Shown piece by piece: positions 6,519 to 29,137 of a stretch of DNA of 64,000 nucleotides (its first letter is position 1; each line of letters begins with the position of its first letter). The stretch comes from Elusimicrobiaceae bacterium (GTDB lineage Bacteria > Elusimicrobiota > Elusimicrobia > Elusimicrobiales > Elusimicrobiaceae). The notes beneath the pieces were generated by a model, which saw only the letters and a program-made list of their open reading frames with translations, made no database searches and was not told the origin of the DNA. The translations under genes and the position numbers were made by a program. The DNA is taken from positions 5,087-69,086 of the forward strand of contig JAZUSP010000047.1 in the NCBI GenBank assembly GCA_045606805.1. The letters run 5' to 3'.

Positions 6519-7175
6519 TTAATCTACTGCTACTATATTATCACTCCAAGGGGAAGGAAGTGTCTTACAAAAAGCCTCTCCTTCTGGACTAAAATAGTCA
6601 CACTCATAGGACACTGAACCGCTAGCATTGATTCCAAATTGTAATGCCATGGATGGTAAATGTTCTCTGGCAATACTTTGTGCCATACACTTTCTAGTAT
6701 CACATCGGGCTGCATATTCCCAATACTTGGTAAAGCAAGAAGCATCCTGTTCTCTTAGACAAGATATGTTCATATCAAGAACGTCAGATTTTACTTCTCC
6801 CGTGAATGAAATACGGTCGTCCTCATTGGCAGGAATGCCGTTACGCAATATATATAAATGCATGGCTTTTTTAAAAGAATCCAGTGTGGTAATGGCCTCA
6901 ACTGCCCGTGTCTTTAGTACAGCTTTTTGGTATTGTGGCACGGCCACAGCGGCCAAAATACCGATAATGAGCACGACGACCAAGAGTTCAATGAGCGTAA
7001 AGCCGTGGGTCGTTGTCAATAAAGGTGTCATCCCCGAGGATTGTAATCGGGGATCTTCCACGCATTTATTAAATAAGGCTTGTTCCCTTTTGTTACAACG
7101 ACAAGCGTTGTAGATTCCCAACAGAGACTCTTGGGAATGACAGACTTTTTTACAAACGTCTTTTTGGTTTTTCAT
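6519..7175 (-). CDS. Type IV pilin-like protein 1 (PilE/PilA-like) with extended leader
   Basis: G|[25 protein letters not shown]-methylation motif after a 58-aa leader; Cys pairs in the C-terminal domain. Confidence 0.92.
   Translation of the reverse strand: MKNQKDVCKKVCHSQESLLGIYNACRCNKREQALFNKCVEDPRLQSSGMTPLLTTTHGFTLIELLVVVLIIGILAAVAVPQYQKAVLKTRAVEAITTLDSFKKAMHLYILRNGIPANEDDRISFTGEVKSDVLDMNISCLREQDASCFTKYWEYAARCDTRKCMAQSIAREHLPSMALQFGINASGSVSYECDYFSPEGEAFCKTLPSPWSDNIVAVD
7027..7141. repeat. GTCATCC-type double-hairpin REP/REPIN-like element inside the pilin 1 leader peptide
   Basis: GTCATCCCCGAG..TCGGGGATCTTCCACGC, then a spacer, then CAAGCGTTGTAGATTCCCAA..TTGGGAATGAC. Confidence 0.85.
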
Positions 7176-7455
7176 AAGTTTTGCTCCTGTTTATTTAATT
7201 TGCAATTTACCCACTTATGAAACCCCACGGAAAACGGCTACTATACCGGAGTTTCTTGCAGTAACCCATATACAACAGCCGTAGTTTACCATTGAAAATG
7301 ATAAACATTCGGTACAACTTCGCAGGTTTGCAATTCCGTTGTCGTTGTACCTTATAATTGGCTGTATTTTGGACTGCAAGAATGCCTTTAAAGGCTTCCC
7401 GTTTCTTAAACGGTTCCAAAAACAGATAAAATTGTACCTATAGTATAATAAAAAA
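7176..7455 (-). ncRNA. Conserved structured 5' leader of pilin cassette, copy L1
   Basis: TATACT -10, UCUGUUUUUGGAACCGUUUAAGAAACGG block, stems CUUGCAGU/ACUGCAAG, ACAGCC/GGCUGU, GGUACAAC/GUUGUACC, conserved GAAUGUUU and downstream AGCCGUUUU. Confidence 0.8.
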
Positions 7456-7572
7456 GGTTGGATTTTAGCAACCTTTTTTAGGGGAAAAGTTTTACGTAAT
7501 GAATATTTACGTCCGCCAAGCATCGGGTAGAATGTTCAAAATAGCGCGGTGCAAACGAAAGGGATGGACGTG

Positions 7573-7696
7573 TTTTCAGATTTGAGGCAGATTCGCACCG
7601 TATGTTGCCCCGCAGCGTACGTCTGCAAGACAACGCGTCAGCGTTGCAGGTACGCAAGGTGGGCAAATCGGTGCGAAGGTGCCCGAATGTGAAAAC
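7573..7696. repeat. ~125-bp palindromic element (GTAC-core family), copy 2
   Basis: Near-identical to 1931-2053, with compensatory changes in the apical stem (AACGCGTCAGCGTT vs AATGCGTCAGCATT). Confidence 0.9.
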
Positions 7697-7711
7697 TGTT
7701 AGTTCGTGGTG

Positions 7712-8323
7712 TTATTGTGAAATCGGTACATTAAGTAAGGGCTTATCTTTCCACCCTTTCTTATCAAAATGCCACCACTCCGTGCGCGTATAGCTAAACC
7801 CGGCGGCCGTCATAATTTGTTTAAGCGTCTCGCGCCGGGCCAATATATCGGCGGGCAAGTCATAAAAATCCATGTGGGCTTGCTTGGTGAAAGAGTCAAA
7901 ATCCGTCGGCATTTTGAGGGGGTTGCCGTTCAAATCGCACGGCGTCAAATCTACCGCCATCCCGCGGCTATGGCGCGAGCCGCGCTTAGGCATGGCCACG
8001 TAACTTGGGTTTGGAAATGCTTGCCACAGCTTGCGGTGCTCGTCCTGCGGGCGATAGCAATCCCACAAGCAAAATGTAAACGGCTCTTTGGCTTGCGCCG
8101 CCAGCGCAACGGCTTTTTTCAGGCCGTCCACCACATCTTTATGCAAGTAACATTTGGCAGAAGCATAGATTTTTTTCCCCGTAAAATTGTTGTCCGTGGC
8201 ATAGCGCAAGCGCACAAACACGGGCAAATTTTCCACGGTTTGCACGTCCACAAGCCCGGCATCCTCTAAGGGTCCGGCCGTCGCGGGCCAGGCACATAAC
8301 AACAGCAAAAGTACGCGTTTCAT
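7712..8323 (-). CDS. ddpX: D-Ala-D-Ala dipeptidase (M15D, VanX/DdpX family), with signal peptide
   Basis: RYATDNNFTG, WDCYRP, SRHSRGMAVDLT and EWWHFD motifs; start MKRVLLLLLC at 8323. Confidence 0.9.
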   Translation of the reverse strand: MKRVLLLLLCAWPATAGPLEDAGLVDVQTVENLPVFVRLRYATDNNFTGKKIYASAKCYLHKDVVDGLKKAVALAAQAKEPFTFCLWDCYRPQDEHRKLWQAFPNPSYVAMPKRGSRHSRGMAVDLTPCDLNGNPLKMPTDFDSFTKQAHMDFYDLPADILARRETLKQIMTAAGFSYTRTEWWHFDKKGWKDKPLLNVPISQ

Positions 8324-8345
8324 ACTTTTATTATATAATAAAGGT

Positions 8346-9263
8346 ATGGACGAAAAACACTTCAAAAGCGGTTTTGCCGTACTGGCCGGGCTGCCCAATG
8401 CGGGTAAGTCCACGCTGCTCAATCAAGTGGCGGGCGGGTTACTCAGTGCTGTTACGCACAAGCCCCAAACCACGCGCCAAAACATTTTGGCAATTAGCGA
8501 GGGGGAAAACTACCAAATTGTGTTTGTGGACACCCCCGGATTCTTAACGCCTAAGTATAAGCTGCAGCAAACCATGGCCGATTGTGTGGACCGCGCCGTG
8601 CAGGAAGAAGCCGACGTGGTGCTTTTTTTGGTGGACATTACCGCGGATTACGAAGAAAACGCCAAGCTGGTGGCTAAGCTTAAAAAAGTGTTCTGCCCCA
8701 TTTTCCTCGTCTTGACCAAGTTGGATTTACTCAAAGACCGCGCGGCCATGGACGCGCTGGAAGAACGCGTTAAAAAAGACTTGCCCATTGCACAGGTAAT
8801 TCACGTTTCGGCTACCAAGGGTATTGGCATTGGAAAACTCAAAAACGCGGTGGCGGACGTGTTGCCGCTGAGCCCGGCGTATTTTCCGGCCGGCCAGTGG
8901 ACGGACCGTTGGGAACGCTTTTACGCGGCCGAGTTTATCCGTGAGCAAGTTTTCCTGTTGTACGAGCAGGAAATCCCGTACAGCACGTACGTGGAAGTGG
9001 AAAAATTTACCGAGAATTTGGGCCCCAAAAACTTTATCCGTGCCATCATCCACGTGGAGCGCGAGAGCCAAAAGCCCATCATCATCGGCAAGGACGGTAG
9101 TATGATTAGACAGTTGCGCGAGCGTAGCCAAAAGCGCGTGGAAGAATTTTTGGGCCGCCCGTGCCGCGTGGAACTGGGGGTCGTGGTATCGCCGGATTGG
9201 CGCAACAACAAGGCCAAGTTAGAGCAGTTTGGCTACCTGGACAAAGACCCGCGCGACATGTAA
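8346..9263 (+). CDS. era: GTPase Era
   Basis: GLPNAGKSTLLN, KPQTTR, DTPG motifs and C-terminal KH domain (EIPY, IIIGKDG). Confidence 0.97.
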   Translation: MDEKHFKSGFAVLAGLPNAGKSTLLNQVAGGLLSAVTHKPQTTRQNILAISEGENYQIVFVDTPGFLTPKYKLQQTMADCVDRAVQEEADVVLFLVDITADYEENAKLVAKLKKVFCPIFLVLTKLDLLKDRAAMDALEERVKKDLPIAQVIHVSATKGIGIGKLKNAVADVLPLSPAYFPAGQWTDRWERFYAAEFIREQVFLLYEQEIPYSTYVEVEKFTENLGPKNFIRAIIHVERESQKPIIIGKDGSMIRQLRERSQKRVEEFLGRPCRVELGVVVSPDWRNNKAKLEQFGYLDKDPRDM

Positions 9264-9267
9264 CTTT

Positions 9268-10424
9268 TTATTTTCCCGCCGATAACCGCTGTGCGATTTT
9301 AGTAAGCATAGCGGTTAATTTTTTATACTGTTCCACGCCGTCGGGGTCCACAAACGGGAAACACGCAATGCGCAAGGAATTTTGCGCTACCGTGCGGTAT
9401 TTTTTCAGGCCGTCAGCCAGGTTTTGTTTGCCGGTAGTGCGTAGAATTTGCGCAATTTGTTCGCCGGTAATTTGCGGGTGTGTAATGGCTAGCGTAAACG
9501 TGGTGAACGAGCGGTATTTTTCGTCGGAAATCAGGGGTTTAAAATACGGGGATTGTTGCGCCCAGTTACCCAAATAATCGGCGTGAGCGCGGCACAGTTT
9601 TTCCATAGCACTTATGCCGCCGCGCGCTAGCATCCATTTGGCGGCTTCATTGGCCATCCATATATTGATGGTGCTGGGGGTATTTAGCGTTTGGAATTGG
9701 TCCGCGTACGCAAGCGCGTTACGCAAATCTAAAAAGAAGGGTAAGTTTCGCGCAGGGTGCTTTGCACGCTCTACAGCGCGCGGGCTAAGCACCATGGCAC
9801 ACGTGCCGCCGCCGGCCCCCAAACATTTTTGCAAGCCGAAAATTTGGATATCGTACGCGCCTTTGGGCAAACGCCGCCCGCCCGCACACGACGTAGTATC
9901 CCACGCCACCAGCGTATGGGGTCCGCGGTTTTGCCAAATGTGAAGCAAATACTCGTCGGGTAATTGAACGCCGGTAGCGGTTTCGTTTGGGGTCAGCAAA
10001 ACTAAACTGGCGTTGGCGTCGGGCAAACCTTGCGGCAAAAAGTGTTCGTCCGCCGTTACAAACGAACGTTTGATGTGGGGCACGCGCGCGGCTAAATCAG
10101 CACACCATAAGTGGCTAAACGCGCCGATATCCACGCCGGAAATGGTATCTTTGGCTAGGCTCCACAGTACGGCGTCCATAGCCGGGGTCACGCCGCCGGG
10201 GAAGAACAAAACGGTGTAATCTGGCGGAATTTCCAACAGCGTGCGCAGATTTTCCACGCACTCTTTGTAAAGACCGTCAAAGGTAATGTCGGCCGCGCGG
10301 TGGCTGCGCTCAAAAAAAGTCTCGTACAGGCGCGCGTTGCGCACAGAAGGCAACCCTTGCCCCGGCCCGCACGAAAAACTGGCAGTGGGGAGTTCTTCCT
10401 CGGTAAAAATCAAATCGTTGGTGT

Positions 10425-10428
<4 letters not shown>
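9268..10428 (-). CDS. serC: Class V PLP aminotransferase, probable phosphoserine aminotransferase
   Basis: FSCGPGQ N-terminus, NETATGV, WDTTSCAGG, FGLQKCLG (PLP lysine) and NTPS motif. Confidence 0.78.
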
Positions 10429-13304
<2,876 letters not shown>

Positions 13305-13384
13305 GGAAAACCTCACACGGGGTTTTTGCCCCGCTAACTTAAATATATTATATAATTTATTTAACTTACACCGGGAGTTTGCGT

Positions 13385-14434
13385 GTGAAAAAACCGCTTA
13401 AATACTTATTATATGGGCTGGGGATGGTGTTATCTATCGGCATTTTGGCCGTGATGATTTACCACGCCAAGGACAGCTTTATCAAAATTTGGCAGGGCGT
13501 TAAAACAAAATACCTGTTTTTGTCGTTATTATCGTCGGTACTGATTTACATTGCCATGGGCATGAGCCTCTACGAAATGCTGCGTATCATGGGCCGGCGC
13601 ATCAGCAAAAGTGCCGCTGTGGGCATTGCCTTAGTTTCCACGACGGTAAACTATTTGGTGTCCTCGCTCGGGGCCAGCGGGTTTGCCTTGCGTGCGCATC
13701 TGCTCAACCGCCGCCGCATCCCGTTTGGCATGTGCGTCACGGCCAGCATTGTAATAACCGTACTCTTATATTTTGTACTGGCCATTATCATTTTGCAAGG
13801 GTCTATTTTGATGCTGTTTAACTCGTCCACGACGCCGTGGCAGCTCTTGGAAAATTTCGGTCTGATTGCCGGGATGTGCATCGTATGTGTGCTGATTACG
13901 GCGTTTCTATTTAATGACGAGTGGCGCTCCAAATGGTTGCGCAAAGCCTTCCGTCTGCTTAACAAAGTGTTGTTCCACGGGTTTGGGGCGCTCATTTCCA
14001 AGGGCCGCTATGACGATTTTGCCGCGCAGTTGGACGAAGGCATTGACCTCATCCACCAAAAACGTCACAAATTGACCAAAGCAATTGTGTACGTCTGCGC
14101 CGATTGGTTTTTTACCATTATGGTGCTTTATTTTGCGTTCCGTGCGGTGGGGGTGATGATTTCGCCCGGCGTGTTGGTGGCGGGGTTTGCCGTGGGCATG
14201 GTGACGACGCTCATCCCCATTTTGCCCAGCGGCCTAGGCGCCATGGAGCTTGCCATGACGGCCGTTTTTAACCAAATGGGTATTGATTGGGATGCCGCTT
14301 TAATGGCTACGCTCATCTACCGCGTAGTCTATTACGTTATCCCCGGCATTGTGAGTATTTTTATTTACTGGGGGCTGCAGTTATCTTCCCCGAGTGATGA
14401 GCCCAAACGTAAACGCAAAGGGGCGCACGTATGA
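13385..14434 (+). CDS. Lysylphosphatidylglycerol-synthase TM domain / UPF0104 flippase-like membrane protein
   Basis: Multi-pass membrane protein with [14 protein letters not shown] and LIYRVVYY motifs; GTG start after GGGAG. Confidence 0.75.
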
Positions 14435-14946
14435 TTGAAAAATTAGTCCACTTAACGCCGCAAATAGACGTAAGCGCATTTGTGCACAAAACGGCGGTGG
14501 TCGTCGGGCAAGTGACGCTGGGGGAAAATGTGTCCGTGTTCCCGTGTGCCGTTTTGCGCGGTGATATTGCCGCCATAACCGTGGGGGAAAACTCCAACAT
14601 TCAAGATAACGCCTGCCTGCACGTCAACTACAATGCGCCGTGCCAAATTGGACGCGGGGTCAGCGTGGGGCACGGGGCCGTGGTGCACGGCAGTAAAGTG
14701 GGCGATAACGTGATTATCGGCATGAACGCGGTCATTATGGAAAGCGAAATCGGCCCCAACTGCATTATTGGCGCCGGGGCGGTGGTACCGGCAGGGAAAA
14801 ATATCCCGGCGGGGTCCCTAGTCATGGGCGTGCCGGCCAAGGTCGTGCGGCCTCTCGACGAGGACGAAGTAAACGGCATTTTGCAAAACGCACACGAGTA
14901 CGTAAAAGCCATCCCGTTATATAAAGAGCAAACGCAAGAATTATGA
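14431..14946 (+). CDS. Gamma-carbonic anhydrase family hexapeptide-repeat protein (YrdA-like)
   Basis: VLRGD, NIQDNACLH, VGHGAVVHG and LVMGVPAKVVR motifs. Confidence 0.92.
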   Translation: MIEKLVHLTPQIDVSAFVHKTAVVVGQVTLGENVSVFPCAVLRGDIAAITVGENSNIQDNACLHVNYNAPCQIGRGVSVGHGAVVHGSKVGDNVIIGMNAVIMESEIGPNCIIGAGAVVPAGKNIPAGSLVMGVPAKVVRPLDEDEVNGILQNAHEYVKAIPLYKEQTQEL

Positions 14947-15308: not shown

Positions 15309-15316
15309 GAGAGAAT

Positions 15317-16432: not shown

Positions 16433-16437
16433 AATTT

Positions 16438-17133
16438 TTAGTAATTGTATCGTATATTTTCTATAGGAGTGCTTTGTTCGGTTTCAGCTTGGCATATTTT
16501 ATGTTGTAGGGTTGTTGTATCGTTTCCATAGGCATAACAAGCTGTTTGTCCGGCATTTTTGTTGTTGTGATTAAGATTAATGAGGTAGCCTATTTGTCTG
16601 TTTCCGGCGGAATCATTTCGGATACAATAAACAGCTGTTTGTTCTTCTCTAATTTCCAAGATACATAATCCCCACGGGTAATAATGGACGCCGTAAATAT
16701 CATTTAACGTGGAAGACGTGGGAGTGGGAACATCTATGTCTAATTTGCTGATATCCGGGGTGTAGCTGTTGTTGGCTAAGTAATATACTTCCTCGGCATT
16801 GGCTAACGTTTTTACGAGGTTTTTAACGGTAGCAAAGCGGCTTTTGAGTACCGCTTTTTGGTACTGCGGCACCGCCACCGTGGCCAATATACCGATAATA
16901 AGTACCACGACTAACAACTCAATAAGAGTGAAAGCGCCGCTATTATATAAAGACGTCATTCCAAACCGGGGCATTGCTGTTGGCCCCGCCCCGTAGTGTC
17001 TTAATACGGGGTCTTGGAATCTTCCACGCATGTTGTTTATTAACGACAACGGCAAGCGTTGAAGATCCTGAATCGAGTTCAGGATGACTTGATTTTTTTG
17101 CGTTTGTCCCCGCCGGGTGTGTTTGTGTGTCAT
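16438..17133 (-). CDS. Type IV pilin-like protein 2 with repeat-derived leader
   Basis: A|[24 protein letters not shown] after a 67-aa leader. Confidence 0.92.
   Translation of the reverse strand: MTHKHTRRGQTQKNQVILNSIQDLQRLPLSLINNMRGRFQDPVLRHYGAGPTAMPRFGMTSLYNSGAFTLIELLVVVLIIGILATVAVPQYQKAVLKSRFATVKNLVKTLANAEEVYYLANNSYTPDISKLDIDVPTPTSSTLNDIYGVHYYPWGLCILEIREEQTAVYCIRNDSAGNRQIGYLINLNHNNKNAGQTACYAYGNDTTTLQHKICQAETEQSTPIENIRYNY
16955..17088. repeat. GTCATCC-type double-hairpin element with nested CCCCG..CGGGG insert, in the pilin 2 leader peptide
   Basis: GTCATTCCAAAC-[CGGGGCATT..CCCCGTAGTGTCTTAATACGGGGTC]-TTGGAATCTTCCACGC..GAAGATCCTGAATCGAGTTCAGGATGAC. Confidence 0.88.
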
Positions 17134-17410
17134 GTGTGTTCTCCTGTTATTTATTTATTTATCTGTTTAGGAACACACATAAAACGGCTGCTTTACTTGA
17201 GGCCTTGCAACGGAACTCATATAAAACAACCGCGGCATACCGCTTTTAAGGGCGGTAAACACTCGGCATAAAACGACGGGGTTATAAGGCCCGTTATCCT
17301 ATACCTGACACAGTTGTTTTTGGAGTTGCAAGGCACCGCGTGCGCAGTTCCCCGTTTCTTAAACGGTTCCAAAAACAGATAAAATTTACTACGTCTTTAT
17401 TATAACAAAA
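17134..17410 (-). ncRNA. Conserved structured 5' leader of pilin cassette, copy L2
   Basis: TATAAT -10, same 5' block, stems CCUUGCAAC/GUUGCAAGG and AAAACAACUG/CGGUUGUUUU, GAGUGUUU, downstream CAGCCGUUUU. Confidence 0.78.
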
Positions 17411-20140: not shown

Positions 20141-20149
20141 ACGCACTCC

Positions 20150-21160: not shown

Positions 21161-21233
21161 AAAAACCCTCTAGTTAGGTATATATAAGTATTATACCTAA
21201 TTATGGGTGTGAAAAGGCATTTTGCTTGATTGG

Positions 21234-21989
21234 CTAATAGGGCATTGTATAAGCGCGTAGCGTTGAATAATTTGTGTCTGTTTGGAGGGGTGCACCAAAA
21301 AGTTGGGTGCAATAACTACCCGGCGTTTTTTGATAAACAAAACCGTTAGAATTGGTCCTTTCTGCACAGATAATTTTGGGTTCTCTCATATCTACAAAGA
21401 AACCGGCCCCGGCATAAGTACCGGAAATGCGCCCTAATTTTATAAAATGCCCATCCATTTGCAGGGCCCAATCTTGGTTAGAACGTACTACAGTTGACGT
21501 AGCATAGGTATCCCATAAAGTGTTTCCCGTCCAGGCGGTTAGGTCAATATCCAGTTCTTCAAAAGTGGTTGCGTATTTTCCATTAGCTAAGTAATAGGCG
21601 GCCTGGGCTTGAACCATTGATTTTAGCAACGGTAATACTTGGGCGGCTTTGCTCTTTTCGACGGCTTTTTGATATTGCGGCACAGCCACTGCCGCCAAAA
21701 TACCAATGATGAGGACAACGACTAACAGCTCAATAAGCGTGAATGCGGCAAGATGCCCCTTAGCCGGGGCATTGTCAGAGCCCGCCCCGCAGGGTTGTAG
21801 TGCGGGGCTAGCCTGACCTACCCGTTTAATAAGGGTAAAACCGCCGTTGTTAAATAAAGACGTCATTCCAAACCTGATTTGGAATCTTCCACGCGTGCTG
21901 TTAATCCACGACAACGACAAGCGTTGTAGATCCTGAATCAAGTTCAGGATGACTTTATTTTGTACAACTAACTTTTTGTTTTGCATCAT
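21234..21989 (-). CDS. Type IV pilin-like protein 3 with doubly extended leader
   Basis: Two FTLI motifs 32 aa apart; the second continues as [20 protein letters not shown]. Confidence 0.9.
21862..21953. repeat. GTCATCC-type double-hairpin element in the pilin 3 leader peptide
   Basis: GTCATTCCAAACCTGATTTGGAATCTTCCACGC..GTAGATCCTGAATCAAGTTCAGGATGAC. Confidence 0.88.
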
Positions 21990-22270
21990 GTTATTTCTCC
22001 TTGTATTTTTTCAATTTATCCGTCTTGGAAAAACTCATGCAAAAACGGCTCATGCCAGTTAAGCGTTTCCCCACCCTTAACCAACAACAGCCGTAATTTA
22101 CCGTACAGAACGATAAACATTCAGCACAACTTTTATTTGGGATCGGCAAATAAATGTTGTGCCTAATTACGCGCTGTATTTTGGAGGGGAAACGATTGCT
22201 TTTTAAAGCAAAAGTCCGTTTCTTAAACGGTTCCAAAAACAGATGAAATTGTCGTTTTCCTACTCTCTCA
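21990..22270 (-). ncRNA. Conserved structured 5' leader of pilin cassette, copy L3
   Basis: TAGAAT -10, 5' block, stems CGUUUCCCC/GGGGAAACG, ACAGC..GUAAUU/AAUUACGGCUGU, GGCACAAC/GUUGUGCU, GAAUGUUU, AGCCGUUUU. Confidence 0.78.
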
Positions 22271-22568
22271 TTCTACATAATTTCTGCCTAATTTGCACCC
22301 TAACTTTGTTACGCGCTTGCTTCAATACCTCCGCCCTAAAGGGCGGTTTACGCAAGTATTCTGCGCAAACGCAAGCCGCGTTAGGGCACAAATTAGTTTG
22401 AAATTATCACGCTGTTTGGGTGTGGCTGCTTGTAAACGTATTTTGAAATGGTTGTTTTTTGATATGATTTTTGCTACCATGAACGGAGGAGAAATCTATC
22501 TCTCTATATAAAAACGCCATATAAAAGGTTTTAGCGAGTTTGAACGGATTATAAAGGAGAACATCAAA

Positions 22569-23624
22569 ATGAAAAACAATAAACGGGGTTTTACCCTGAT
22601 TGAACTGTTGGTAGTAGTGCTTATCATTGGTATATTGGCGGCGGTAGCGGTGCCGCAGTATAAAAGAGCGGTAGAAAAAAGCCGCTTTAGTGCGTTAATT
22701 CCGGTAGCTAAAGGGGTGGCAACGGGGAACGAAAGTTATTATTTGGAGTCAAACACGTATGCAAATGATATCAAGTATTTAAGTGTAGATGCCAATGCAC
22801 AAGGAATAGAAATAAGTGTGGTAAATGATGACTCAAACGGGCTTAGTTATGTAAAAGCATATAATGAAACCGAATTACCAAATCATGACTATGTTGTCTT
22901 TCAAGAACACAGTGGAAATTTTGGAGGAGTTACGATGTGTGAAGCGGCGGATGAAGAAGCCGGAAAACTGTGCGAAGCGATGGGAGGGAGTATTTTGGAC
23001 GGAGCCGTAACTAGCGGGTGGATTGCGTATGCTTTAAGCGGCGATACGGCCGGAAGCAGTTTCCCCAGTGCGGGTGGTTTTAATTTGGGTGATTTTGACC
23101 AAGCTGCCCTAAATGAGGTATTGGCGGGGTTACCTACTGGAAGCACTTATTCTTATAACTTTGACATATGTGAAGCAATGGACTCGGCGACTAGTTGCGC
23201 CAAATCTACATTTAAGAAAATGGGATATTGTAGGGCGGGGCGACAATATAGTTGTGCAGGTTCTACCTTTAGCAATGGTGGTACATGTACTACCTTCTCT
23301 AATTTAGACGCAGAATATGCGTGTGCGGGTTCTACCTTTGGAGCTAGCGCAAAATGTCAAGGATATAATGCATATGGTTGTGCAGGAAGTACCTTTAGCG
23401 GATATAATAGTTACTGCCAGGGGGGAGCTGCGTACGGATGTGTGGGCTCTACCTTTAGCGGAGAGAATAGTTACTGCCGGGGAGATGTGGAGGACGGATG
23501 TACAGGTACAACCATTCAATCTGGGGCATATTGTACGGGGCAAGGGTGTGCAAACGCCGCGTATGAAGGAACCGGATGTTGCAAAGGAGATTATTGCGGC
23601 AGTGCGCCGAAATGTGCCTCTTAA
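22569..23624 (+). CDS. Type IV pilin-like protein 4 with Cys/Gly-rich repeat C-terminus
   Basis: MKNNKRG|FTLIELL short leader; repeated CxGSTF..YC units in the last ~140 aa. Confidence 0.9.
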   Translation: MKNNKRGFTLIELLVVVLIIGILAAVAVPQYKRAVEKSRFSALIPVAKGVATGNESYYLESNTYANDIKYLSVDANAQGIEISVVNDDSNGLSYVKAYNETELPNHDYVVFQEHSGNFGGVTMCEAADEEAGKLCEAMGGSILDGAVTSGWIAYALSGDTAGSSFPSAGGFNLGDFDQAALNEVLAGLPTGSTYSYNFDICEAMDSATSCAKSTFKKMGYCRAGRQYSCAGSTFSNGGTCTTFSNLDAEYACAGSTFGASAKCQGYNAYGCAGSTFSGYNSYCQGGAAYGCVGSTFSGENSYCRGDVEDGCTGTTIQSGAYCTGQGCANAAYEGTGCCKGDYCGSAPKCAS

Positions 23625-23649
23625 TTTGTATCAAAAAATCTGATTAAAC

Positions 23650-23683
23650 AAAGAGCCCCGGCAATATAGCGGGGCTCTTTTTT
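23650..23683. terminator. Bidirectional terminator between pilin 4 and hydF
   Basis: AAAGAGCCCCG..CGGGGCTCTTTTTT. Confidence 0.8.
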
Positions 23684-24858
23684 CATCTTCCTTTTTTTCT
23701 AAAAATCTCCGTCACGCGCTCAAAAATGCCATTGCACCACGCAATCGTGAGGCCGTAGTTGCTTACGGGGACGCCGGCCTCTTTTAACACCGTTAGGCGG
23801 CGCAAAATTTGCGTGCGCGTTACCATGCATCCGCCGCACTGGATAGCCAATTTAAAGGGACTTAAGTTTTCAGGCAGCGGGTCCAAATTATTGACGGTCG
23901 TAAAAAAGAGTTGTTTGCCGGTAAATTCTTGCAGCCAGCGCGGGATTTTCACGCGGCCGATGTCGTCGCATTTATTTACGGTATGCGTGCAGGACTCCAG
24001 CACCAAAATGTGGTCGCCGTCTTGCAGTTTATCAATGGCGGGTGTGCCTTTTAAGTAGGCGTCAAAATCGCCTTTAAGGCGCGAAAATAAAATGCTAAAG
24101 CTCGTCAGCGGGATATGCGCGGGCACGACGGAGCTAACATATTTAAACACTTGCGAATCGGTCACCACCAGCTTAGGCGTGTGGTTGGCCATGTAACCCC
24201 GCAGTTCGGTATCCTTGACGCACACGGCCGTGGCACCGATATCCAGCAAATTGCGAATCGTCTGCACTTGCGGTAAAATAAGCCGCCCTTGCGGGGCCGA
24301 ACTGTCCACGGGAATAACTAAAACAATCTCATCTCCGGCGCGCACGTAATCGTCCAAAATCACGTCGGGCGCGTAGGAACTTTTGGGCAGGTGCTCACGG
24401 ATGGTACGCAACAATAAATCCACGTTCGGTTTTTTGCACGTAAACGCAACGACGTCCGCGCCTTTAATTTCCACATTAGTGGTAGGCAAATCGGTCTTGT
24501 TCTGCACGAAGAAAAACGGCACTTTGCGTGCTTTGCACGTTTCCATTAACGTTTGGTCGTACGCGTCAAAATTTCCGGCAAATACGAGGACCGCCAAATC
24601 CACTTGGTCCAGCGCGTCATTGGTGCGCGCGACGCGTTGCTGCCCCAGGTTGCTGGGGTCGTCCACGCCGGCGGTGTCAATGAGTTCCACCGGCCCGATA
24701 CCGACGAGTTCAATGACTTTTTTAACCGGGTCCGTAGTGGTGCCGGGTTCGTCCGCCACAACGGAAACCTGCTGGCCTGTTAAGGCGTTGACGAGGGAGC
24801 TTTTCCCCACGTTCATTTTGCCAAAAAATCCAATCCGGGGTTTATTGAGTTGTACCAT
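23683..24858 (-). CDS. hydF: [FeFe]-hydrogenase maturation GTPase HydF
   Basis: GKMNVGKSS, GTTTDPV, DTAG, PQGRLILPQVQT, ESCTH..DDIGRVKIP and CGGCM motifs. Confidence 0.88.
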   Translation of the reverse strand: MVQLNKPRIGFFGKMNVGKSSLVNALTGQQVSVVADEPGTTTDPVKKVIELVGIGPVELIDTAGVDDPSNLGQQRVARTNDALDQVDLAVLVFAGNFDAYDQTLMETCKARKVPFFFVQNKTDLPTTNVEIKGADVVAFTCKKPNVDLLLRTIREHLPKSSYAPDVILDDYVRAGDEIVLVIPVDSSAPQGRLILPQVQTIRNLLDIGATAVCVKDTELRGYMANHTPKLVVTDSQVFKYVSSVVPAHIPLTSFSILFSRLKGDFDAYLKGTPAIDKLQDGDHILVLESCTHTVNKCDDIGRVKIPRWLQEFTGKQLFFTTVNNLDPLPENLSPFKLAIQCGGCMVTRTQILRRLTVLKEAGVPVSNYGLTIAWCNGIFERVTEIFRKKGR

Positions 24859-24900
24859 AATCTCATTATACTAAACTTGCGCAAGAGGTAATTTCTGAGC

Positions 24901-25083
24901 CAAATTACGAAGAAAAAATCTTGAACAGGCGGTAAAACACAAGCCTCCGGTTTTTCAAAGGAATTTGTGTTAGAACGCGACGCGGACTTGCGAAGTATAC
25001 TGTGCGCAGCCGCCCGGAGGGCGGAGGTATTCGAGCAAGGACGCAACAAAGTTCTAGCGCAAATTACGAAGAAAAAATCTTGA
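24901..25083. repeat. Palindromic insert flanked by identical 24-bp direct repeats
   Basis: CAAATTACGAAGAAAAAATCTTGA at 24901-24924 and 25060-25083; inverted arms AATTTGTGTTAGAAC/GTTCTAGCGCAAATT between them. Confidence 0.85.
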
Positions 25084-25108
25084 CAAATGCTTTTTGTTCC
25101 ACTATACT
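25080..25108 (+). promoter_or_regulatory. sigma70 promoter for the 25137 operon
   Basis: TTGACA-17 bp-TATACT. Confidence 0.8.
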
Positions 25109-25136
25109 ATAAATACCGTTTTACGAGGGGGATTTT

Positions 25137-25691
25137 ATGAAAACCGTACTTGTAGTATTCACTTTGTTAGGGGCCGCTTTGAGCGCCGCCGCGTATCAGG
25201 CGGGGCCGCAAAACCGTTCCAATTTCGGCTCCAACCAAGCGGCGCAAGCGGGCCAGCAAAATTACCGTTCGTTTAGCACTTACAAACAGCGCAATTGGAG
25301 CCAAGGTGTGCAAACCCAGCGCGTGCAGACCGAAACGGCCGGTAAGTCGGCTACGGATTTTGAGAAAAAGGCCCAAAAACCCGTCGGTAAAACGCAAGCC
25401 GTTGCGCCGAAAGCAGTCAAACCCGCCCCGCAAGCGGTGGCGACAAAGCCGTCGTCAACCACGGCCAATATGCCCGCCAATGCGGACCCGGCCGCTATGA
25501 TGCAACAAGTGCAAAATATGATGAGCGCCATGGGCAACATGAGCGGTGCGCAACCGAGCCAACCCGGCGTATCGGGCCAAGCGCAAGTTGGCCAAAATGC
25601 GGCGGCCATGCCCGCAGGTACGCCGGATCTCTCGGCCTTAATGGGGGGAGCGATGCCCGCGGCCCCGGCGGCAACCCCGGCTAAAAAATAA
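25137..25691 (+). CDS. Secreted low-complexity (Q/A/M/P-rich) hypothetical protein
   Basis: Signal peptide MKTVLVVFTLLGAALSAAA; GGGGG RBS. Confidence 0.75.
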   Translation: MKTVLVVFTLLGAALSAAAYQAGPQNRSNFGSNQAAQAGQQNYRSFSTYKQRNWSQGVQTQRVQTETAGKSATDFEKKAQKPVGKTQAVAPKAVKPAPQAVATKPSSTTANMPANADPAAMMQQVQNMMSAMGNMSGAQPSQPGVSGQAQVGQNAAAMPAGTPDLSALMGGAMPAAPAATPAKK

Positions 25692-25692
25692 T

Positions 25693-26382
25693 ATGAAACA
25701 TCTTTTAGTAAGTGTATTTTTAATCAGTATGCTCAGTGTGTGGAGTGTGGCGCAGCGCCCCCAAACCGAGGTGGAAATGCGCCGCCCGGGCATGTCTGTT
25801 GAAGTTACTCGCCCGCAAACCCTTACGGGTGCCGAGCGTCCGGATACGACGGCAGAAATAAACCGCCCCACCACGCAAACCGGGGCCGTGCGCGCGCAAA
25901 CAACTGTTTCCACACAACGCCCGCAGACGGAGGCAAGTGCCGTATATCCGGCTACTACCGTGGAAACGGTGAAACCCATGACGACGGTAGAAGTGATGCG
26001 CCCTCAAACCACGGTAGAGCTTTCCCGTCCGCAAACGGCGGAATTTTCCGTGGCACAAAGCGGCAGCGTTGCCGGGCAAAAAGGGGGGAAAAGTGCAGCG
26101 GTTACGTCGGCACAGGCCACTACTTCTATGAGTAATTTTACCCCCAAGCAAGCCAAAGATTTTTCGTCCGCGCAAAAAGCCGCACCGCTGGGCGGGGGGG
26201 AGAATAAACTGGGTAACGAAACTAACGCCGCCGAGAAAGATGCCGCTAATAAAGCCAGTATGCTAGGCAAACAAAGCAATCAAAATATGGATGTGGACCC
26301 GAATTTAAAGACAGGCAACCTGGCGGCTTTAGGCGCGTCGGTGGAGAAGAAAGTAGAAGAAACTAAGAAGAAGAAAAAATAA
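25693..26382 (+). CDS. Secreted protein with 11 tandem 9-aa RPxT repeats
   Basis: Signal peptide; RPQTEVEMR/RPGMSVEVT/RPQTLTGAE... with period 9; Lys-rich tail. Confidence 0.8.
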   Translation: MKHLLVSVFLISMLSVWSVAQRPQTEVEMRRPGMSVEVTRPQTLTGAERPDTTAEINRPTTQTGAVRAQTTVSTQRPQTEASAVYPATTVETVKPMTTVEVMRPQTTVELSRPQTAEFSVAQSGSVAGQKGGKSAAVTSAQATTSMSNFTPKQAKDFSSAQKAAPLGGGENKLGNETNAAEKDAANKASMLGKQSNQNMDVDPNLKTGNLAALGASVEKKVEETKKKKK

Positions 26383-26395
26383 AATTTCTGCTTGG

Positions 26396-26446
26396 AAAAG
26401 GGGGGAGAAACGGTCTATTGGTGGCTGTTTCTCCCCCTCTTTTTTC
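26396..26446 (+). terminator. Terminator after the 25137-26382 operon
   Basis: AAAAGGGGGGAGAAAC..GTTTCTCCCCCTCTTTTTT. Confidence 0.75.
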
Positions 26447-26548
26447 TAACTATTTTTTCCTGACGCGGGAGCGGATATTTGGGCTCAATAGGCGTTTTTT
26501 TCGGTGACAGCGCCTAATTTTAACGTTCCAATAAGCAGTTATAAAATG

Positions 26549-26640
26549 GATAATCCCTGAACTCGTTTCAGGGTCTTTGATGCTTGTAGTTGTTTTTAAC
26601 AACCTACGTGGAAGATCCCGAAACAAGTTCGGGAATAATC
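26549..26640. repeat. Intergenic GTCATCC-type double-hairpin element (degenerate)
   Basis: CCCTGAACTCGTTTCAGGG..ACGTGGAAGATCCCGAAACAAGTTCGGGA. Confidence 0.75.
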
Positions 26641-26675
26641 TTTATGCATATTATTAGGTCGATTTTTGGGTTTAC

Positions 26676-26965
26676 CTAAAACGTTCGGAGCACAAATGCC
26701 CGTACACGGCACAGTACCCCCAAAATGTTTTGGGGCAAATGGGAACCTGGCGCGGGTGCATATGTTTGGGCTTGTCTAAAACGTTTGGCGCACAAATGCC
26801 CGTACGGCAAGTATCCCCAAAATGTTTTGGAGCATTTGGCTTTAAATCGGGTTTTTGTTTGGGGGTATATCCTAGTACCCCTCATTTCGTTTTAGGGCAT
26901 TGGCTTAAAACGCGTTTTTGTTTTGCCCCATATCCCAGGTACCCTATTTTTGTTATAGGGCATTT
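26676..26965. repeat. Two pairs of imperfect direct repeats (~65-bp units)
   Basis: CTAAAACGTT(C/T)GG(A/C)GCACAAATGCCCGTAC..CCCCAAAATGTTTTGG at 26676 and 26776; GCATT(T)GGCTT..GTTTTTGTTT..GTACCC at 26832 and 26897. Confidence 0.75.
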
Positions 26966-27256
26966 TAGCAAAATGCAAAATTAAGCTAATTTTTGCAAAA
27001 TGTGGTGGGGGGAGTAAAAACCAAAAAAACAGTTCAATTTTACCGTATGGGGGTATATCAGTATACCCCCAATTTTGTTTTAGCCCGTTTAAAATAAGAC
27101 ATGATTTTTAACCCAACTTTGTGAACTTGTATTGCTAACAAAAAATAACTATAAACTAAGTTAGAATTAACATAAAAATATTTATAAATTAAGTAGAAAA
27201 TATAAAAATATAATAATAGTTAGAGCAGTGGTAAAAATCGCTTTTAAATCCTAATT

Positions 27257-27284
27257 ACTTAACATAATACTTATTCTCGTTAGT
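27257..27284 (-). other. Candidate dif (XerCD) site
   Basis: Minus strand reads ACTAACGAGAA-TAAGTA-TTATGTTAAGT, an 11-6-11 layout. The right arm is close to E. coli TTATGTTAAAT and the left arm to B. subtilis ACTTCCTAGAA. Confidence 0.6.
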
Positions 27285-27355
27285 TAAATAAACGCTGACA
27301 AATACCCCCTTTCACGCCATTTTGTCCCCATGATTTTGCACGATTTGAAAATAGT

Positions 27356-27364
27356 TGTGGATAA
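27356..27364 (-). promoter_or_regulatory. Perfect DnaA box (TTATCCACA)
   Basis: TGTGGATAA on the plus strand, in an AT-rich intergenic region. Confidence 0.45.
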
Positions 27365-27488
27365 CAGTTGTGAATTTTATAAAATAATTTGAGAAAATGG
27401 GGAAAACTATAAAAAAATAGTAAAAAATAAAAGTACTTAAAAAATAAGTACTTTTTATATTGCGTACAAAAACCTACAAAATGATGTT

Positions 27489-28034
27489 TTACATCTGTTT
27501 TAGTAAATTTTCGGCCAGAGCAAAGGCTTTGGCAAAGCCCTCATTGGTTAGCTGATAAGTGCGGCTGCGTTTAGTTCCCTCCCCCACCATGCGCCCGGCC
27601 TGGATTTCCCCAGCCAGCAAACGGTCCAGCCGGCCCGCATCTATCCCGCAGGCTTTTAAAGAATGGGCCAAGTCCAGGGCCGGGTAAGCAGGTTTTTTTA
27701 AGAGTACACGGGCCCCAGCCAAGAGTATAAGGGCCACCTCTTGCGCAGATAACTTGGTTTTGCGGCGCAGGGTCAGCAGGTTGCCGTCCTCTTTGAGCAG
27801 TTTTTCCCATAAATAAAGTTCGGTATGCGGGGTATTGACGGGCGTAACAACCGCTAATTGCGGGGCTTGATGAGCCATGGCCGGAGTAGCCGGGGGAGCG
27901 GCCTTAGCCGCCCCAATGAGGGTCAAAAAATAGTTGCGTTCGCGCTCAATAAATTCACGCGGGCCCTGGGCCTCAAACTCCTCGCCGTTAGGCAGCCGGA
28001 AGCGTATTTTTAAGACGTTTTCCCCATTGTTCAT
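27489..28034 (-). CDS. Hypothetical protein with probable C-terminal winged helix-turn-helix
   Basis: C-terminal pattern of helices plus wing (GRLDRLLAGEIQAGRMVGEGTKRSRTYQLTNEG); strong upstream promoter and GAGG RBS. Confidence 0.65.
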   Translation of the reverse strand: MNNGENVLKIRFRLPNGEEFEAQGPREFIERERNYFLTLIGAAKAAPPATPAMAHQAPQLAVVTPVNTPHTELYLWEKLLKEDGNLLTLRRKTKLSAQEVALILLAGARVLLKKPAYPALDLAHSLKACGIDAGRLDRLLAGEIQAGRMVGEGTKRSRTYQLTNEGFAKAFALAENLLKQM

Positions 28035-28097
28035 AAGCTGTTTATAACCTCATTTTTTAGCACGTTTTCCACGGGAGTTATCCCCCGCCACAGACAT

Positions 28098-28126
28098 ATA
28101 ATAGCTATTTTGTTATTTTATGTCAA
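28098..28126 (-). promoter_or_regulatory. sigma70 promoter of the wHTH gene
   Basis: TTGACA-17 bp-TATTAT on the minus strand. Confidence 0.75.
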
Positions 28127-28432
28127 GCGATATGTTATTTATGTCAGTTTTATGTCATCCCCGGTGGATAAGTTTTATTGTAGGAAGAAGGCGCAACGCA
28201 AAATTTTGCCCGGTTTTGTAAAAAATTGAGCGGTAGTGTTAGATTTTTTGTCCATACCAAGCCCCCAAAATATGACACATAAAATGAAGTGGATTTTTTC
28301 TCCCCCCACCCCTTAAAATTAACCCAATTTTTGCGTGGGGTGGGCGGATGCCTCAAAATCAGTAAAAACAGGGGCAGAAACCTTAAAAAACAAAAACCGC
28401 AAAATCGGGTATGATTTTGCGGTAAAAAAAAA

Positions 28433-29137
28433 CTAAACCATCCGGTAGAGAAACTGTGAAAATAATTTTTGACAATAATCACCCGGTTGCTTAGAAAATA
28501 GAATTTTACTATTATTAAACCGTTCCATACACATCAATTGTTTTGCGGGATAGGAAGGTGTGGTGCTATTAAGTAAATATACAAAACCCGCTCCGGCATA
28601 AGGTCCGGAGATGCGCCCTATGGCAAGACCCTTTCCAACGGCTTGGTCATAAAATTCTAAACTCCAGTCTTTATTGGATATAGCGCCTGCGGTGTTTAGC
28701 CAACTTTCATGTTTATTCCAAGACATATTTACATCCAAATCTGCAAAAGAATTTGCGTATGTTCCATTTGCCAAATAGTAGGCTTCCTGTGCGGCTGCTA
28801 TGGACCGAATGATTGCAAATGCTTGGGTAGCTTTGCTTTTTTCTACTGCTTTTTGGTATTGTGGAACGGCCACGGCCGCCAATATACCAATGATAAGAAC
28901 AACGACTAGTAGTTCAATGAGAGTAAAGGCCGTGTTGGTATATAAATTTGTCATTCCAAACCGGGGTATTACCGTTGGCCCCGCCCCGTAGTGTCTTAAT
29001 ACGGGGTCTTGGAATCTTCCACGCAGGTCGTTTCGTAACGAAAACAGCAAGCGTTGAAGATCCTGAGTCAAGCTCAGGATGACTTTATTGTTTACAGTCG
29101 GTTGCGTGAAACCCCACCGGGTGTATAGCTGATTCAT
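28433..29137 (-). CDS. Type IV pilin-like protein 5 with repeat-derived leader
   Basis: A|[24 protein letters not shown] after a 70-aa leader. Confidence 0.9.
   Translation of the reverse strand: MNQLYTRWGFTQPTVNNKVILSLTQDLQRLLFSLRNDLRGRFQDPVLRHYGAGPTVIPRFGMTNLYTNTAFTLIELLVVVLIIGILAAVAVPQYQKAVEKSKATQAFAIIRSIAAAQEAYYLANGTYANSFADLDVNMSWNKHESWLNTAGAISNKDWSLEFYDQAVGKGLAIGRISGPYAGAGFVYLLNSTTPSYPAKQLMCMERFNNSKILFSKQPGDYCQKLFSQFLYRMV
28950..29083. repeat. GTCATCC-type double-hairpin element with nested insert, in the pilin 5 leader peptide
   Basis: Same layout as 16955-17088, including CCCCGTAGTGTCTTAATACGGGG. Confidence 0.88.

Follow-up and report, generated by a model that had tools for sequence, protein, structure and literature searches.

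Rickettsia palindromic elements (RPEs; Ogata et al. 2000) are ~100-150 bp palindromes of several families that lie in frame in protein-coding genes (PMC10969869), while described prepilin leaders measure <10 aa in type IVa and ~15-30 aa in type IVb pilins (PMC3927602). In an Elusimicrobiaceae genome and ~20 related gut and rumen species, palindromic repeats occur within the leaders of type IV pilins. Leader lengths across these loci span 7-190 aa, with short leaders of 7-9 and long leaders of 44-190 residues, the latter far exceeding every described prepilin leader. We consider it probable that these are in-frame mobile repeats resembling RPEs, which are tolerated through removal by prepilin peptidase and have spread among pilin paralogues. 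The RPE precedent invoked in the original prediction is an apt analogy. The leaders have apparently been stretched because they are to be removed from the pilin in any case.

An nhmmer profile made from the originally reported copies was used to find elements within the window (the whole 64-kb stretch of DNA analysed). This revealed exactly seven copies of a double-hairpin repeat, element A, ~92 nt long or 134 nt with a nested element, at the positions first proposed: four in the ORFs of pilins 1, 2, 3 and 5, all with the minus strand as best strand, and three intergenic, two of which are inverted (Table 1). Element A comprises two inverted hairpin units of the form GTCATYC-stem/loop-GGATCTTCMACGC with A/T-rich outer arms, and its half-site GATCTTCMACGC has 24 matches in the window at ≤2 mismatches versus 6.5 ± 2.6 in shuffles, 14/14 half-sites of the seven elements being included. 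RNA folding of the repeats gave z = -3.5 to -7.4. Across 40 copies of element A, 94.7% of cells pair, compared with 28-45% when the partners are slid, and compensatory changes are present in 11/12 pairs of its two local hairpins. Three different readings of the element are found across copies, one of them being CHSRxSLSG..; given these changes of frame and the covarying hairpins, it is the DNA or RNA of the element that is conserved, not its peptide. The VILN..-like text originally ascribed to the leaders is confined to pilins 2, 3 and 5, as pilin 1 is read in another frame. A second, 48-nt two-hairpin element, B, is nested in a hairpin loop of element A in pilins 2 and 5, and families B to G, which are related to element A, are built on GTCAYCC or other hairpins.

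Table 1. Repeats, pilin genes and leaders in the window (↓, cleavage site).
Feature	Position	Strand	Remarks
Element A, pilin 1 leader	7027..7141	-	Read as CHSQESLLGIYNACRC..CVEDPRLQSSGMT; nhmmer 47 bits, ORF translation, fold z -3.45
Element A + nested B, pilin 2 leader	16955..17088	-	Read as VILNSIQDLQRL..RGRFQ[DPVLRHYGAGPTAMPR]FGMT; nhmmer, translation, folding
Element A, pilin 3 leader	21862..21953	-	Simplest copy (92 nt); nhmmer; fold -36.2 kcal/mol, z -5.06
Element A + nested B, pilin 5 leader	28950..29083	-	nhmmer, translation, folding
Element A, intergenic	26550..26640	+	Variant ends ATAATCC..GGAATAAT; nhmmer
Element A, intergenic	35153..35252	-	Just upstream of promoter of short-leader pilin 34388-34864; nhmmer; fold z -7.39
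Element A + nested B, intergenic	39936..40083	+	Downstream of pilin 40175-40771; nhmmer
Nested element B, pilin 2	16966-17013		Within element A copy
Nested element B, pilin 5	28961-29008		Within element A copy
B-like two-hairpin insert, pilin 3	21744..21827	-	84 nt; cleavage-site codons duplicated; sequence and translation
REP-like unit GTCATCCCGCA..TGCGGGATAT	44985..45028	-	Related; in frame in non-pilin gene
Intergenic twin of REP-like unit	33252..33295	+	
Pilin 1 ORF	6519-7175	-	Open from SD-ATG through element to G/A↓FTLIELL
Pilin 2 ORF	16438-17133	-	Open from SD-ATG through element to G/A↓FTLIELL
Pilin 3 ORF	21234-21989	-	Open from SD-ATG through element to G/A↓FTLIELL
Pilin 5 ORF	28433-29137	-	Open from SD-ATG through element to G/A↓FTLIELL
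Pilin 1 leader	7002..7175	-	58 codons, SD-ATG to G↓F
Pilin 2 leader	16933..17133	-	67 codons
Pilin 3 leader	21744..21989	-	82 codons
Pilin 5 leader	28928..29137	-	70 codons
Leader of pilin 40175-40771	40631..40771	-	47 codons; GTCAYCCCGCA-type hairpin units (B family); fold z -5.48
Leader of pilin 54092-54709	54527..54709	-	61 codons; F module (SCPPCGE..)
Short-leader pilin	34388..34864	-	MKKENQG↓F, uninserted state
Short-leader pilin	45591..46076	-	MEWKKRG↓F from SD-aligned ATG
Short-leader pilin-like gene	22569..23624	+	MKNNKRG↓F; Pfam N_methyl at residues 2-27

A homologous promoter, 5'UTR (~270 nt, structured) and strong SD-ATG are common to all pilins of the window, whether their leaders are short or long, and the same UTR lies upstream of pilins in >50 related loci. 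The element A copies in the long leaders of pilins 1, 2, 3 and 5 and the 7-aa leaders of three other pilins were confirmed, and two further pilins of the window were found to have long, repeat-built leaders, one of them with an F module that is also present in pilin leaders of other MAGs. In pilin 1 the Pfam N_methyl match covers residues 57-78, past the long leader. The processing site is retained: of 138 pilins with long leaders, 102 have G and 36 have A at position -1, and all have F at position +1. The long leaders carry a net charge of +2 to +15 (positive in 35/35) with a TM-like segment in 0/35, a Pfam search of the leaders returned no domain, and AF2 pLDDT is 42-54 for leaders versus 83-95 for the mature pilin.

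Reading frame was assessed in ~75 related Elusimicrobiaceae loci, for which starts were picked by UTR homology and SD only, blind to frame. Long leaders were in frame and free of stops in 37/39 cases, versus 1/39 open in frame +1 and 0/39 in frame +2, bearing out the claim of in-frame insertion into leaders. In line with the original prediction, the start is best placed upstream of the repeats, at the conserved SD-ATG, and on these sequence grounds we infer translation from the upstream ATG. The frame is clearly broken only in L099, where an A7 run lacks 1 nt that is present in the open orthologue L087. Between positional orthologues (P2/L089, P5/L004 and P1/L003) module content differs while the frame is always kept.

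The syntenic orthologue of pilin 2 (L106/P0005; TPR gene) represents the empty site. It has the 9-aa leader MTQKHTRRG↓FTLIELL where the window reads MTHKHTRRG-QTQ-[element]-..A↓FTLIELL, which supports the proposal that short leaders are ancestral; the pilin 2 leader retains the ancestral leader and GFT(L) as its first 9 codons and QTQ. The corresponding DNA is ATG..CGGCGGGGTTTCACGCTCATTGAG in L106 and ..CGGCGGGGACAAACGC↓AAAAAAATCAA-[A+B]-..GGCGCT↓TTCACTCTTATTGAG in the window. Gains are lineage-specific: among orthologues of the pilin 2 mature domain (73-81% identity), P0002, P0004-P0007 and P0013 have leaders of 7-9 aa, and P0003, P0008-P0011 and P0019 have quite different long leaders. Duplicated remnants of the cleavage site were observed as GGTTTYACNC twice (L011, L041), GGTTTCACGCTAAT twice (L078) and FTLI twice in pilin 3, in which the 84-nt insert splits the FTLI codons, leaving a first FTLI, the insert and then the functional A↓FTLIELL.

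In the reading we favour, small non-autonomous palindromic repeats would insert at the 5' end of Elusimicrobiaceae type IV pilin genes, either within the short leader or among the G-F-T-L-I codons at the cleavage site, where insertions duplicate ~10-14 nt and so would rebuild the cleavage site downstream. Translation would begin at the original conserved SD-ATG and continue across the repeats, giving the prepilin a predicted N-terminal extension of 44-190 residues that is basic, non-hydrophobic, unstructured and on the cytoplasmic side of the TM helix. Prepilin peptidase would presumably cleave the retained, distal G/A↓F site and discard the repeat-encoded peptide, so that the insertion is erased at the protein level. 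Survival would be limited to in-frame, stop-free insertions whose peptide is basic and non-membrane. Leaders may grow by nested and tandem additions, and spread among paralogues may involve repeated insertion and/or gene conversion between the conserved 5'UTR and helix-alpha1 coding sequence. The repeats would be actively transposing and presumably have no host function.

Of 110 copies of element A, 55-59 lie in pilin leaders, and modules B-G are almost never found elsewhere, although leaders make up <<1% of the DNA sampled. A search of 1.84 billion protein representatives with the element peptide gave 168 matches, and 138 of the best 150 have it at pilin N-termini. Recombinational spread or site-specific targeting suits the near-restriction of modules B-G to leaders better than does random transposition with tolerance. 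It is possible, if on the unlikely side, that an enzyme recognises prepilin cleavage-site or leader DNA (GGN TTY ACN CTN ATH GAR), the pilin family serving as a safe harbour. Left junctions fall within ~15 nt, past GGNTTYACC, GGNTTYACNC, ..CTC, ..CTNAT or ..CTTATT, with 10-14-nt duplications, 41/42 leader copies of element A share one orientation, and leader copies are younger than their host genes. However, junction positions vary, pilins 1 and 3 have insertions earlier in the leader, after MKNxK, 38/110 copies of element A are intergenic with no pilin nearby, and surviving junctions would likewise cluster if insertions that regenerate G↓F were selected. A search of the window and ~500 kb of related loci, a weak test, turned up no such enzyme, RAYT or other transposase.

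Leader DNA of the window is 97.5% identical to that of L109, versus 89% for the neighbouring TPR gene and 82% for the pilin N-terminus, and three paralogues of one MAG have 100% identical leaders and N-termini at 89-93%. This excess conservation of the leaders over the surrounding DNA argues against a purely neutral passenger, making the suggested neutral landing pad doubtful, unless the leaders are homogenised by conversion or recently mobile. In L109 the locus, UTR and leader match those of the window but the C-terminal pilin domain is unrelated, lending some support to the earlier idea of recombination handles. A function selected by the host, be it RNA structure tuning translation or mRNA stability, homology blocks for pilin cassette exchange, or on/off switching by indels in hairpins and A-runs, would fit these identities, the leader shared with L109, the compensated hairpins, the near leader-specificity of modules B-G and the position of the sole frameshift. 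We nonetheless regard it as doubtful: orthologues with plain 7-9-aa leaders persist, module content is haphazard among orthologues, one element is read in several frames, and covariation and copy identity are equally expected from mobile-element selection or gene conversion.

That the leaders arose without transposition, through local duplication, hairpin slippage and unequal recombination between paralogues, with intergenic copies as decayed pilin 5' ends, appears improbable. Pilin-gene recombination is evident, and the scarcity of modules B-G outside leaders and the failure to find a transposase would suit such an origin, but intergenic copies of element A have the terminal inverted repeats and A/T-rich arms without any pilin or UTR remnant, element B is nested in A hairpin loops in leaders and in one intergenic copy, and some copies are flanked by target duplications. 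A related unit also sits outside the pilins, in a gene for a secreted protein (44898-45530, + strand), to which it adds 7 residues directly past the signal peptide; the original statement that no other CDS carries such an insertion consequently fails for the wider superfamily and, judging by the protein matches above, stands for element A.

Initiation past the repeats, at the GGAATGAC ATG or a module-borne SD-ATG, would make them 5'UTR or an upstream ORF. An in-frame internal ATG yielding a 3-30-aa leader occurs in 32/35 long leaders, as G-M-T is the reading of the element end GGAATGAC, an SD-like motif precedes an internal start in 14, and module F terminates with GGGAGGGAAATG just 4 codons ahead of F, where GGGAGGGAA-ATG-NNN-NNN-GGN↓TTY gives a normal-looking 4-aa leader. 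Dual initiation alongside the upstream ATG may thus occur, judging from these motifs. As the sole start, however, we find it very improbable, since an irrelevant frame predicts ~1/3 of leaders in frame, most with stops, against the 37/39 observed, the four window copies lack an SD ahead of the internal ATG, copies of element A in one of its readings end without an in-frame ATG, and short- and long-leader genes share a homologous, strong SD-ATG where the UTR ends. Finally, although MAG contigs frequently end at the element and pilin 40175-40771 has a degenerate N-terminus (LTLPGLL) past its leader, gene-calling or assembly artefacts or dead pilins are a negligible explanation given a pattern that recurs in a contiguous window and ~20 independent assemblies, conserved, confidently folded mature domains of ~163 aa, and the -1 and +1 residues of 138/138 pilins.

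Like type IVb prepilins, the long-leader pilins have a class III signal, with a leader, G↓F and a hydrophobic helix with E5, and would be processed by prepilin peptidase, but their leaders are made of repeats and heterogeneous among orthologues. As in Neisseria pilE/pilS (PMC13321361), the pilin 5' region is conserved and variable C-terminal cassettes are exchanged at one locus (window versus L109); here, however, no silent promoterless cassettes were seen, each pilin comes with a promoter, UTR and start codon of its own, and exchange is seen only between strains. REPINs and REPs, which are mobilised by RAYTs, share the two inverted hairpin units with a spacer, a short conserved motif beside a covarying stem, the many copies and the lineage-restricted distribution (PMC3116915, PMC3337134). 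REPINs, however, are extragenic by definition, the weak test above found no RAYT, and some copies of the present repeats have 10-14-nt target duplications. Such duplications are not an expected product of RAYT/IS200-type single-strand transposition. Bacterial MITEs (ERIC, BOX, Anabaena) are likewise short, have terminal inverted repeats, are sometimes flanked by target duplications and form some in-frame fusions with host ORFs, but such fusions are sporadic, and none in a prepilin or signal leader is reported in a review in which 'pilin', 'leader' and 'signal peptide' do not appear (PMC10969869). Inteins and self-splicing introns are a conceptual parallel, as selfish coding inserts whose product is removed with the host protein unharmed; they remove themselves, whereas removal here would depend on a host protease already cutting at that place. 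RPEs share the several families of in-frame palindromic repeats translated as extra peptide and the lineage-specific insertions, albeit with unrelated sequence and in another phylum. RPEs are scattered among unrelated metabolic genes and stay in the mature protein, whereas the Elusimicrobiaceae repeats are concentrated in one gene family and a presumably cleaved segment, in chains of up to 190 residues.

Translation and the Pfam N_methyl family identified a type IV pilin N-terminus in nine genes of the window, and a Pfam scan of the ORFs places these singly, dispersed between housekeeping genes. The window pilins carry the class III signal (G or A at -1, F at +1, E at +5 and a hydrophobic helix; PF07963), and three of them retain leaders, the segments before the G/A|F cleavage site, of only 7 aa. 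One long-leader pilin (40175-40771) has a degenerate N-terminus, RG|LTLPGLLVVV, lacking Phe1 and Glu5; such a sequence might belong to a paralogue that is decaying or does not assemble. The PilD gene is absent from the window, and exact-protein look-ups of pilin 3 and one short pilin returned no match.

A profile built from the copies in the original prediction recovered exactly seven copies of the ~92-nt double-hairpin repeat, element A, in the window, with four in pilin ORFs and three intergenic, each where it had been placed and with two of the intergenic copies inverted as had been described. The element ends in GTCATYC and GRATGAC (also given as GTCATYC..GGATCTTCMACGC) and contains two local hairpins around a variable central spacer, with a near-invariant, mutually pairable pair of arms, ATCTTCMACGC and GCGTGGAAGAT. 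The A/T-rich outer arms (..TTATAAARA and NCTTTATKTTA..) are part of the element and are found in the intergenic copies too. In an alignment of 40 copies drawn from many genomes, the proportion of paired cells was 94.7%, versus 28-45% with slid partners, and compensatory double changes occurred at 11 of the 12 pairs of the two local hairpins; predicted RNA folds of the element gave z-scores of -3.5 to -7.4. The shared 'VILN..' peptide text ascribed to all four leaders holds for pilins 2, 3, and 5 but not for pilin 1, which uses another frame of the element. As element A is read in at least three ways, one of which yields CHSRxSLSG..CVEDPRLQxSGMT, the conserved entity is a nucleic-acid element and not a peptide. 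Each end of the element closes one frame through a TGA in the terminal repeat, and the intergenic copies mostly have stops in several frames, so an open frame is not intrinsic to element A.

Coordinates of pilin genes, repeats and compared loci (window positions unless a locus is named)
Feature	Position	Strand	Element A copy	5'UTR
Pilin 1	6519-7175	minus	7027-7141	7176-7440
Pilin 2	16438-17133	minus	16955-17088	17134-17395
Pilin 3	21234-21989	minus	21862-21953	21990-22255
Pilin 5	28433-29137	minus	28950-29083	29138-29419
Further pilin		minus		34865-35130
Pilin with other hairpin modules	40175-40771	minus		40772-41045
Further pilin		minus		46077-46340
Pilin with other hairpin modules	54092-54709	minus		54710-54975
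F-type leader	54527-54709	minus
Element A, intergenic			26549-26640
Element A, intergenic			35151-35252
Element A, intergenic			39936-40083
Terminator-like site	17065-17085	plus
Terminator-like site	21930-21950	plus
Terminator-like site	29060-29080	plus
74-nt unit, three tandem copies	1709-1933
134-nt segment	1929-2062
134-nt segment, recurrence	7571-7704
Secreted-protein ORF	44898-45530	plus
REP-like unit in that ORF	44985-45028
Intergenic twin of that unit	33252-33295
Frameshifted leader	L099:6572-6769
Open orthologue	L087:5893-6080
Pilin 2 locus, relative	L109:739-1440
JAZNWD shared leader	L023:26-137
JAZNWD shared leader	L025:26-137
JAZNWD shared leader	L048:3470-3583

To assess the reading frame, starts in the window and related loci were set by UTR homology and the Shine-Dalgarno sequence alone, ignoring frame. 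This revealed that 37 of 39 long leaders are in frame and stop-free, against 1 and 0 that stay open in the other two frames, which bears out the predicted in-frame writing of the elements into leaders. The lone clear exception, L099, has a 1-base deletion in an A7 run relative to its open orthologue L087, explicable either as an error of assembly or as an off switch of the slippage type; the A7/A6 difference lies inside the element's A-rich outer arm. Leaders range from 7 aa to the 190 aa of L100 across the window and loci and measure 44-190 aa in most genes sampled. When the 50-aa leader of pilin 3 was searched against 1.84 billion protein representatives using index-free phmmer, 168 matches were obtained, and 138 of the best 150 are pilins matched at their N-terminus, with median leader and mature lengths of 52 and 163 aa; apart from two unrelated repeat proteins, the others among the best 150 are fragments. 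The cleavage site lies 44-157 residues from the N-terminus, with G (102) or A (36) at -1 and F at +1 in 138/138. A 41-aa leader peptide had no match in a word-indexed protein search, a limit of that method given the 168 phmmer matches.

The long leaders are positively charged (net +2 to +15 in 35/35), and none of the 35 has a membrane-like stretch. A folded or known domain is ruled out by the lack of any Pfam family match to the long leaders and by AlphaFold2 pLDDT values of 42-54, versus 83-95 for the mature part, which was modelled with a pilin fold comprising a helix at 70-121 plus a beta-sheet. These sequence properties fit a cytoplasmic extension that precedes the transmembrane helix and would be removed by prepilin peptidase; we infer this removal from the established cleavage of class III signal peptides (PMC3927602). 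Some genes could instead, with low probability, initiate internally, downstream of the repeats; those at L010, L029, and L094 might also do so because hairpin module F brings an SD-like motif plus an ATG there. Internal initiation leaves the conserved frame unexplained. At these three loci the module ends GGGAGGGAA-ATG-NNN-NNN-GGN, placing the ATG four codons before Phe1; the F-type leader of the window ends ..KGGRKG, without this ATG.

Comparison with relatives indicates that the repeats of the long leaders were inserted. Relatives of pilin 2 with mature domains 73-81% identical have either plain leaders (MKNLQKRG, MTQKHTRRG, MTKRNTRRG, or MKLTTRG) or long leaders that are unrelated and assembled from other modules. 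The contig of one of them, L106 (MTQKHTRRG|FTLIELL), is syntenic with the window, having the same TPR gene downstream, and DNA homology between the two extends from the ATG to ..GGNTTYACGC and then again from TTCACTCTTATTGAG. Pilin 2 therefore retains the old leader and decayed G-F-T codons that now read G-Q-T-Q, followed by the insert and a regenerated site. The cleavage-site DNA flanking inserts is duplicated over 10 nt in pilin 2, L011, and L041, over 14 nt in L078, and over ~15 nt in pilin 3, where FTLI occurs twice; duplications were found only at cleavage-site insertions, with no clear one at other element copies. In MAGs whose flanks are 75-86% identical, the positional orthologues of pilins 1, 2, and 5 hold different modules, yet every one of them stays in frame. 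Modules are also nested: a 48-nt two-hairpin element resides in a hairpin loop of three element A copies, those of pilins 2 and 5 plus an intergenic one, and a relative of it interrupts the FTLI codons of pilin 3. Two further window pilins derive long leaders from other hairpin modules, and six non-A module families are nearly confined to leader ORFs in the ~500 kb sampled.

All eight minus-strand window pilins share an alignable promoter-like box (TTATACTATAGGTACAATTT) and a ~270-nt structured 5'UTR, with a strong Shine-Dalgarno sequence before the ATG, and box and UTR recur in more than 50 related loci. RNAalifold analysis of 18 copies of the UTR gave 47 pairs, 28 with compensatory changes. 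The whole window had no Rfam match at gathering thresholds, one pilin UTR had none at E<=1, and ARAGORN found no tRNA in the window. The UTR is a candidate for a new cis-regulatory RNA of pilin genes. A 74-nt unit, present three times in tandem at 90-91% identity, is followed by a segment of 134 nt, and a second copy of that segment, 93% identical, lies shortly before the promoter region of pilin 1; neither repeat is a tRNA or matches Rfam. A simple terminator scan flagged no sense-strand site inside the leaders; it flagged weak intrinsic-terminator-like sites, formed by the element hairpin plus a T-rich outer arm, only antisense to the pilin mRNA, and sense-direction attenuation is therefore unsupported.

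The leader DNA is more conserved than its flanks. Between the window and L109, identity at the locus of pilin 2 is 97.5% in the leader and 94.5% in the 5'UTR, versus 89% in the neighbouring TPR gene and 82% in the pilin N-terminus, while their C-terminal pilin domains are unrelated. This pattern suggests that a cassette was replaced, the breakpoint being at the leader or shortly behind it. Similarly, one MAG (JAZNWD) carries a 117-nt leader that is 100% identical in three pilin genes whose N-terminal coding sequences are 89-93% identical and whose C-termini are unrelated. On these alignments we regard recombination at these pilin loci as real. That k141 contigs break at the element shows that the repeats fragment MAG assemblies. 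The original prediction had offered the leader as a neutral landing pad, and in-frame inserts are apparently tolerated there, but with leader DNA more conserved than the flanks pure neutrality appears doubtful. The high leader identity would fit equally with recent movement of the element into a favoured site, with gene conversion restricted to the leader, or with selection on structured DNA or RNA.

The repeat-unit pattern occurs in ~75 stretches from ~20 Elusimicrobiaceae, Elusimicrobium, and Avelusimicrobium MAGs obtained from ruminant and other gut samples, with single chance matches only outside them. The window and loci hold 110 copies of element A; a strict motif places 55 of these in pilin leaders and variant motifs ~4 more, while 38 are intergenic or elsewhere and 9 are at contig ends. 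Leader copies have a uniform orientation (41/42), which together with clustered junctions gives a hint of targeting to pilin leaders, although junctions would likewise cluster if only inserts with a rebuilt G|F site survived selection. A related single REP-like unit (GTCATCCCGCA..TGCGGGATAT) with an intergenic twin lies in frame in a secreted protein that is not a pilin. Placed just past the signal peptide, it contributes 7 residues that none of 15 homologues has, one of them 93% identical, and in-frame tolerance is therefore not limited to pilins. As a weak negative, Pfam detected no transposase in 20 window ORFs, and no multi-copy transposase-like ORF was found among 582 ORFs in ~500 kb of loci, a search that a single-copy RAYT (the Y1 HUH transposase of REP/REPIN systems, whose gene REPs typically border) would escape. 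Searches for sequencing runs found only metagenomes sharing <=22% of words, and no RNA runs; contigs from four metagenome runs covered only repeated parts and yielded no usable presence/absence polymorphism.

Taken together, our analysis supports a model in which the repeats would be translated in frame and their insertion tolerated because the leader is discarded. A bolder proposal, which we consider possible but rather unlikely, is that a family of mobile palindromic elements has specialised on the prepilin leader and the codons of its cleavage site, a safe harbour where it inserts preferentially and where the host prepilin peptidase removes its product. Repeat-rich leaders might secondarily supply homology for exchanging pilin cassettes, or work as switches. 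If correct, this would be a third route, beside introns and inteins, by which selfish DNA is harmless inside coding sequence. The supported model, for its part, offers a clear reason for tolerance, which makes it testable why some coding sites admit selfish DNA. Under it the known range of prepilin leaders would widen about six-fold, from a maximum of ~30 aa to 190 aa, and prepilin peptidase is predicted to process very long, arbitrary cytoplasmic extensions, which is relevant to pilin biology and to the engineering of cleavable N-terminal tags. Annotation is affected as well: pilin N-termini look odd to gene callers and domain models, and assemblies of these bacteria from gut and rumen metagenomes break at the leaders. 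With its conserved 5'UTR and a cassette swap at one and the same locus, this poorly studied phylum seems to have an unexplored system for regulating and varying its pilins.

Described prepilins share the methylation motif with these pilins but have short leaders, of <10 aa in type IVa and 15-30 aa in type IVb (PMC3927602), and literature searches found no account of prepilin leaders that contain repeats or reach such lengths. Element A resembles MITEs in its small size (92-150 nt, where MITEs stay below ~300 bp), terminal inverted repeats, and lack of transposase coding capacity. It shares with REPINs of REP-RAYT systems the anatomy of two inverted REP hairpin units with a short spacer that could form one long hairpin, but not their extragenic location, as 55-59 of 110 copies, and four of seven in the window, lie inside pilin ORFs. 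The similar class is that of the Rickettsia palindromic elements (PMC10969869), likewise palindromic repeats that are in frame and open in genes, a likeness that extends here to the non-pilin case; as the host phylum, here Elusimicrobiota, differs, they are an analogue and not a class to which these repeats belong. The Elusimicrobiota repeats would be a second independent case, far more focused in that they concentrate on a cleavable segment. In-frame repeats are themselves known, and we rate as new their occurrence here with a distinctive, testable reason for tolerance.
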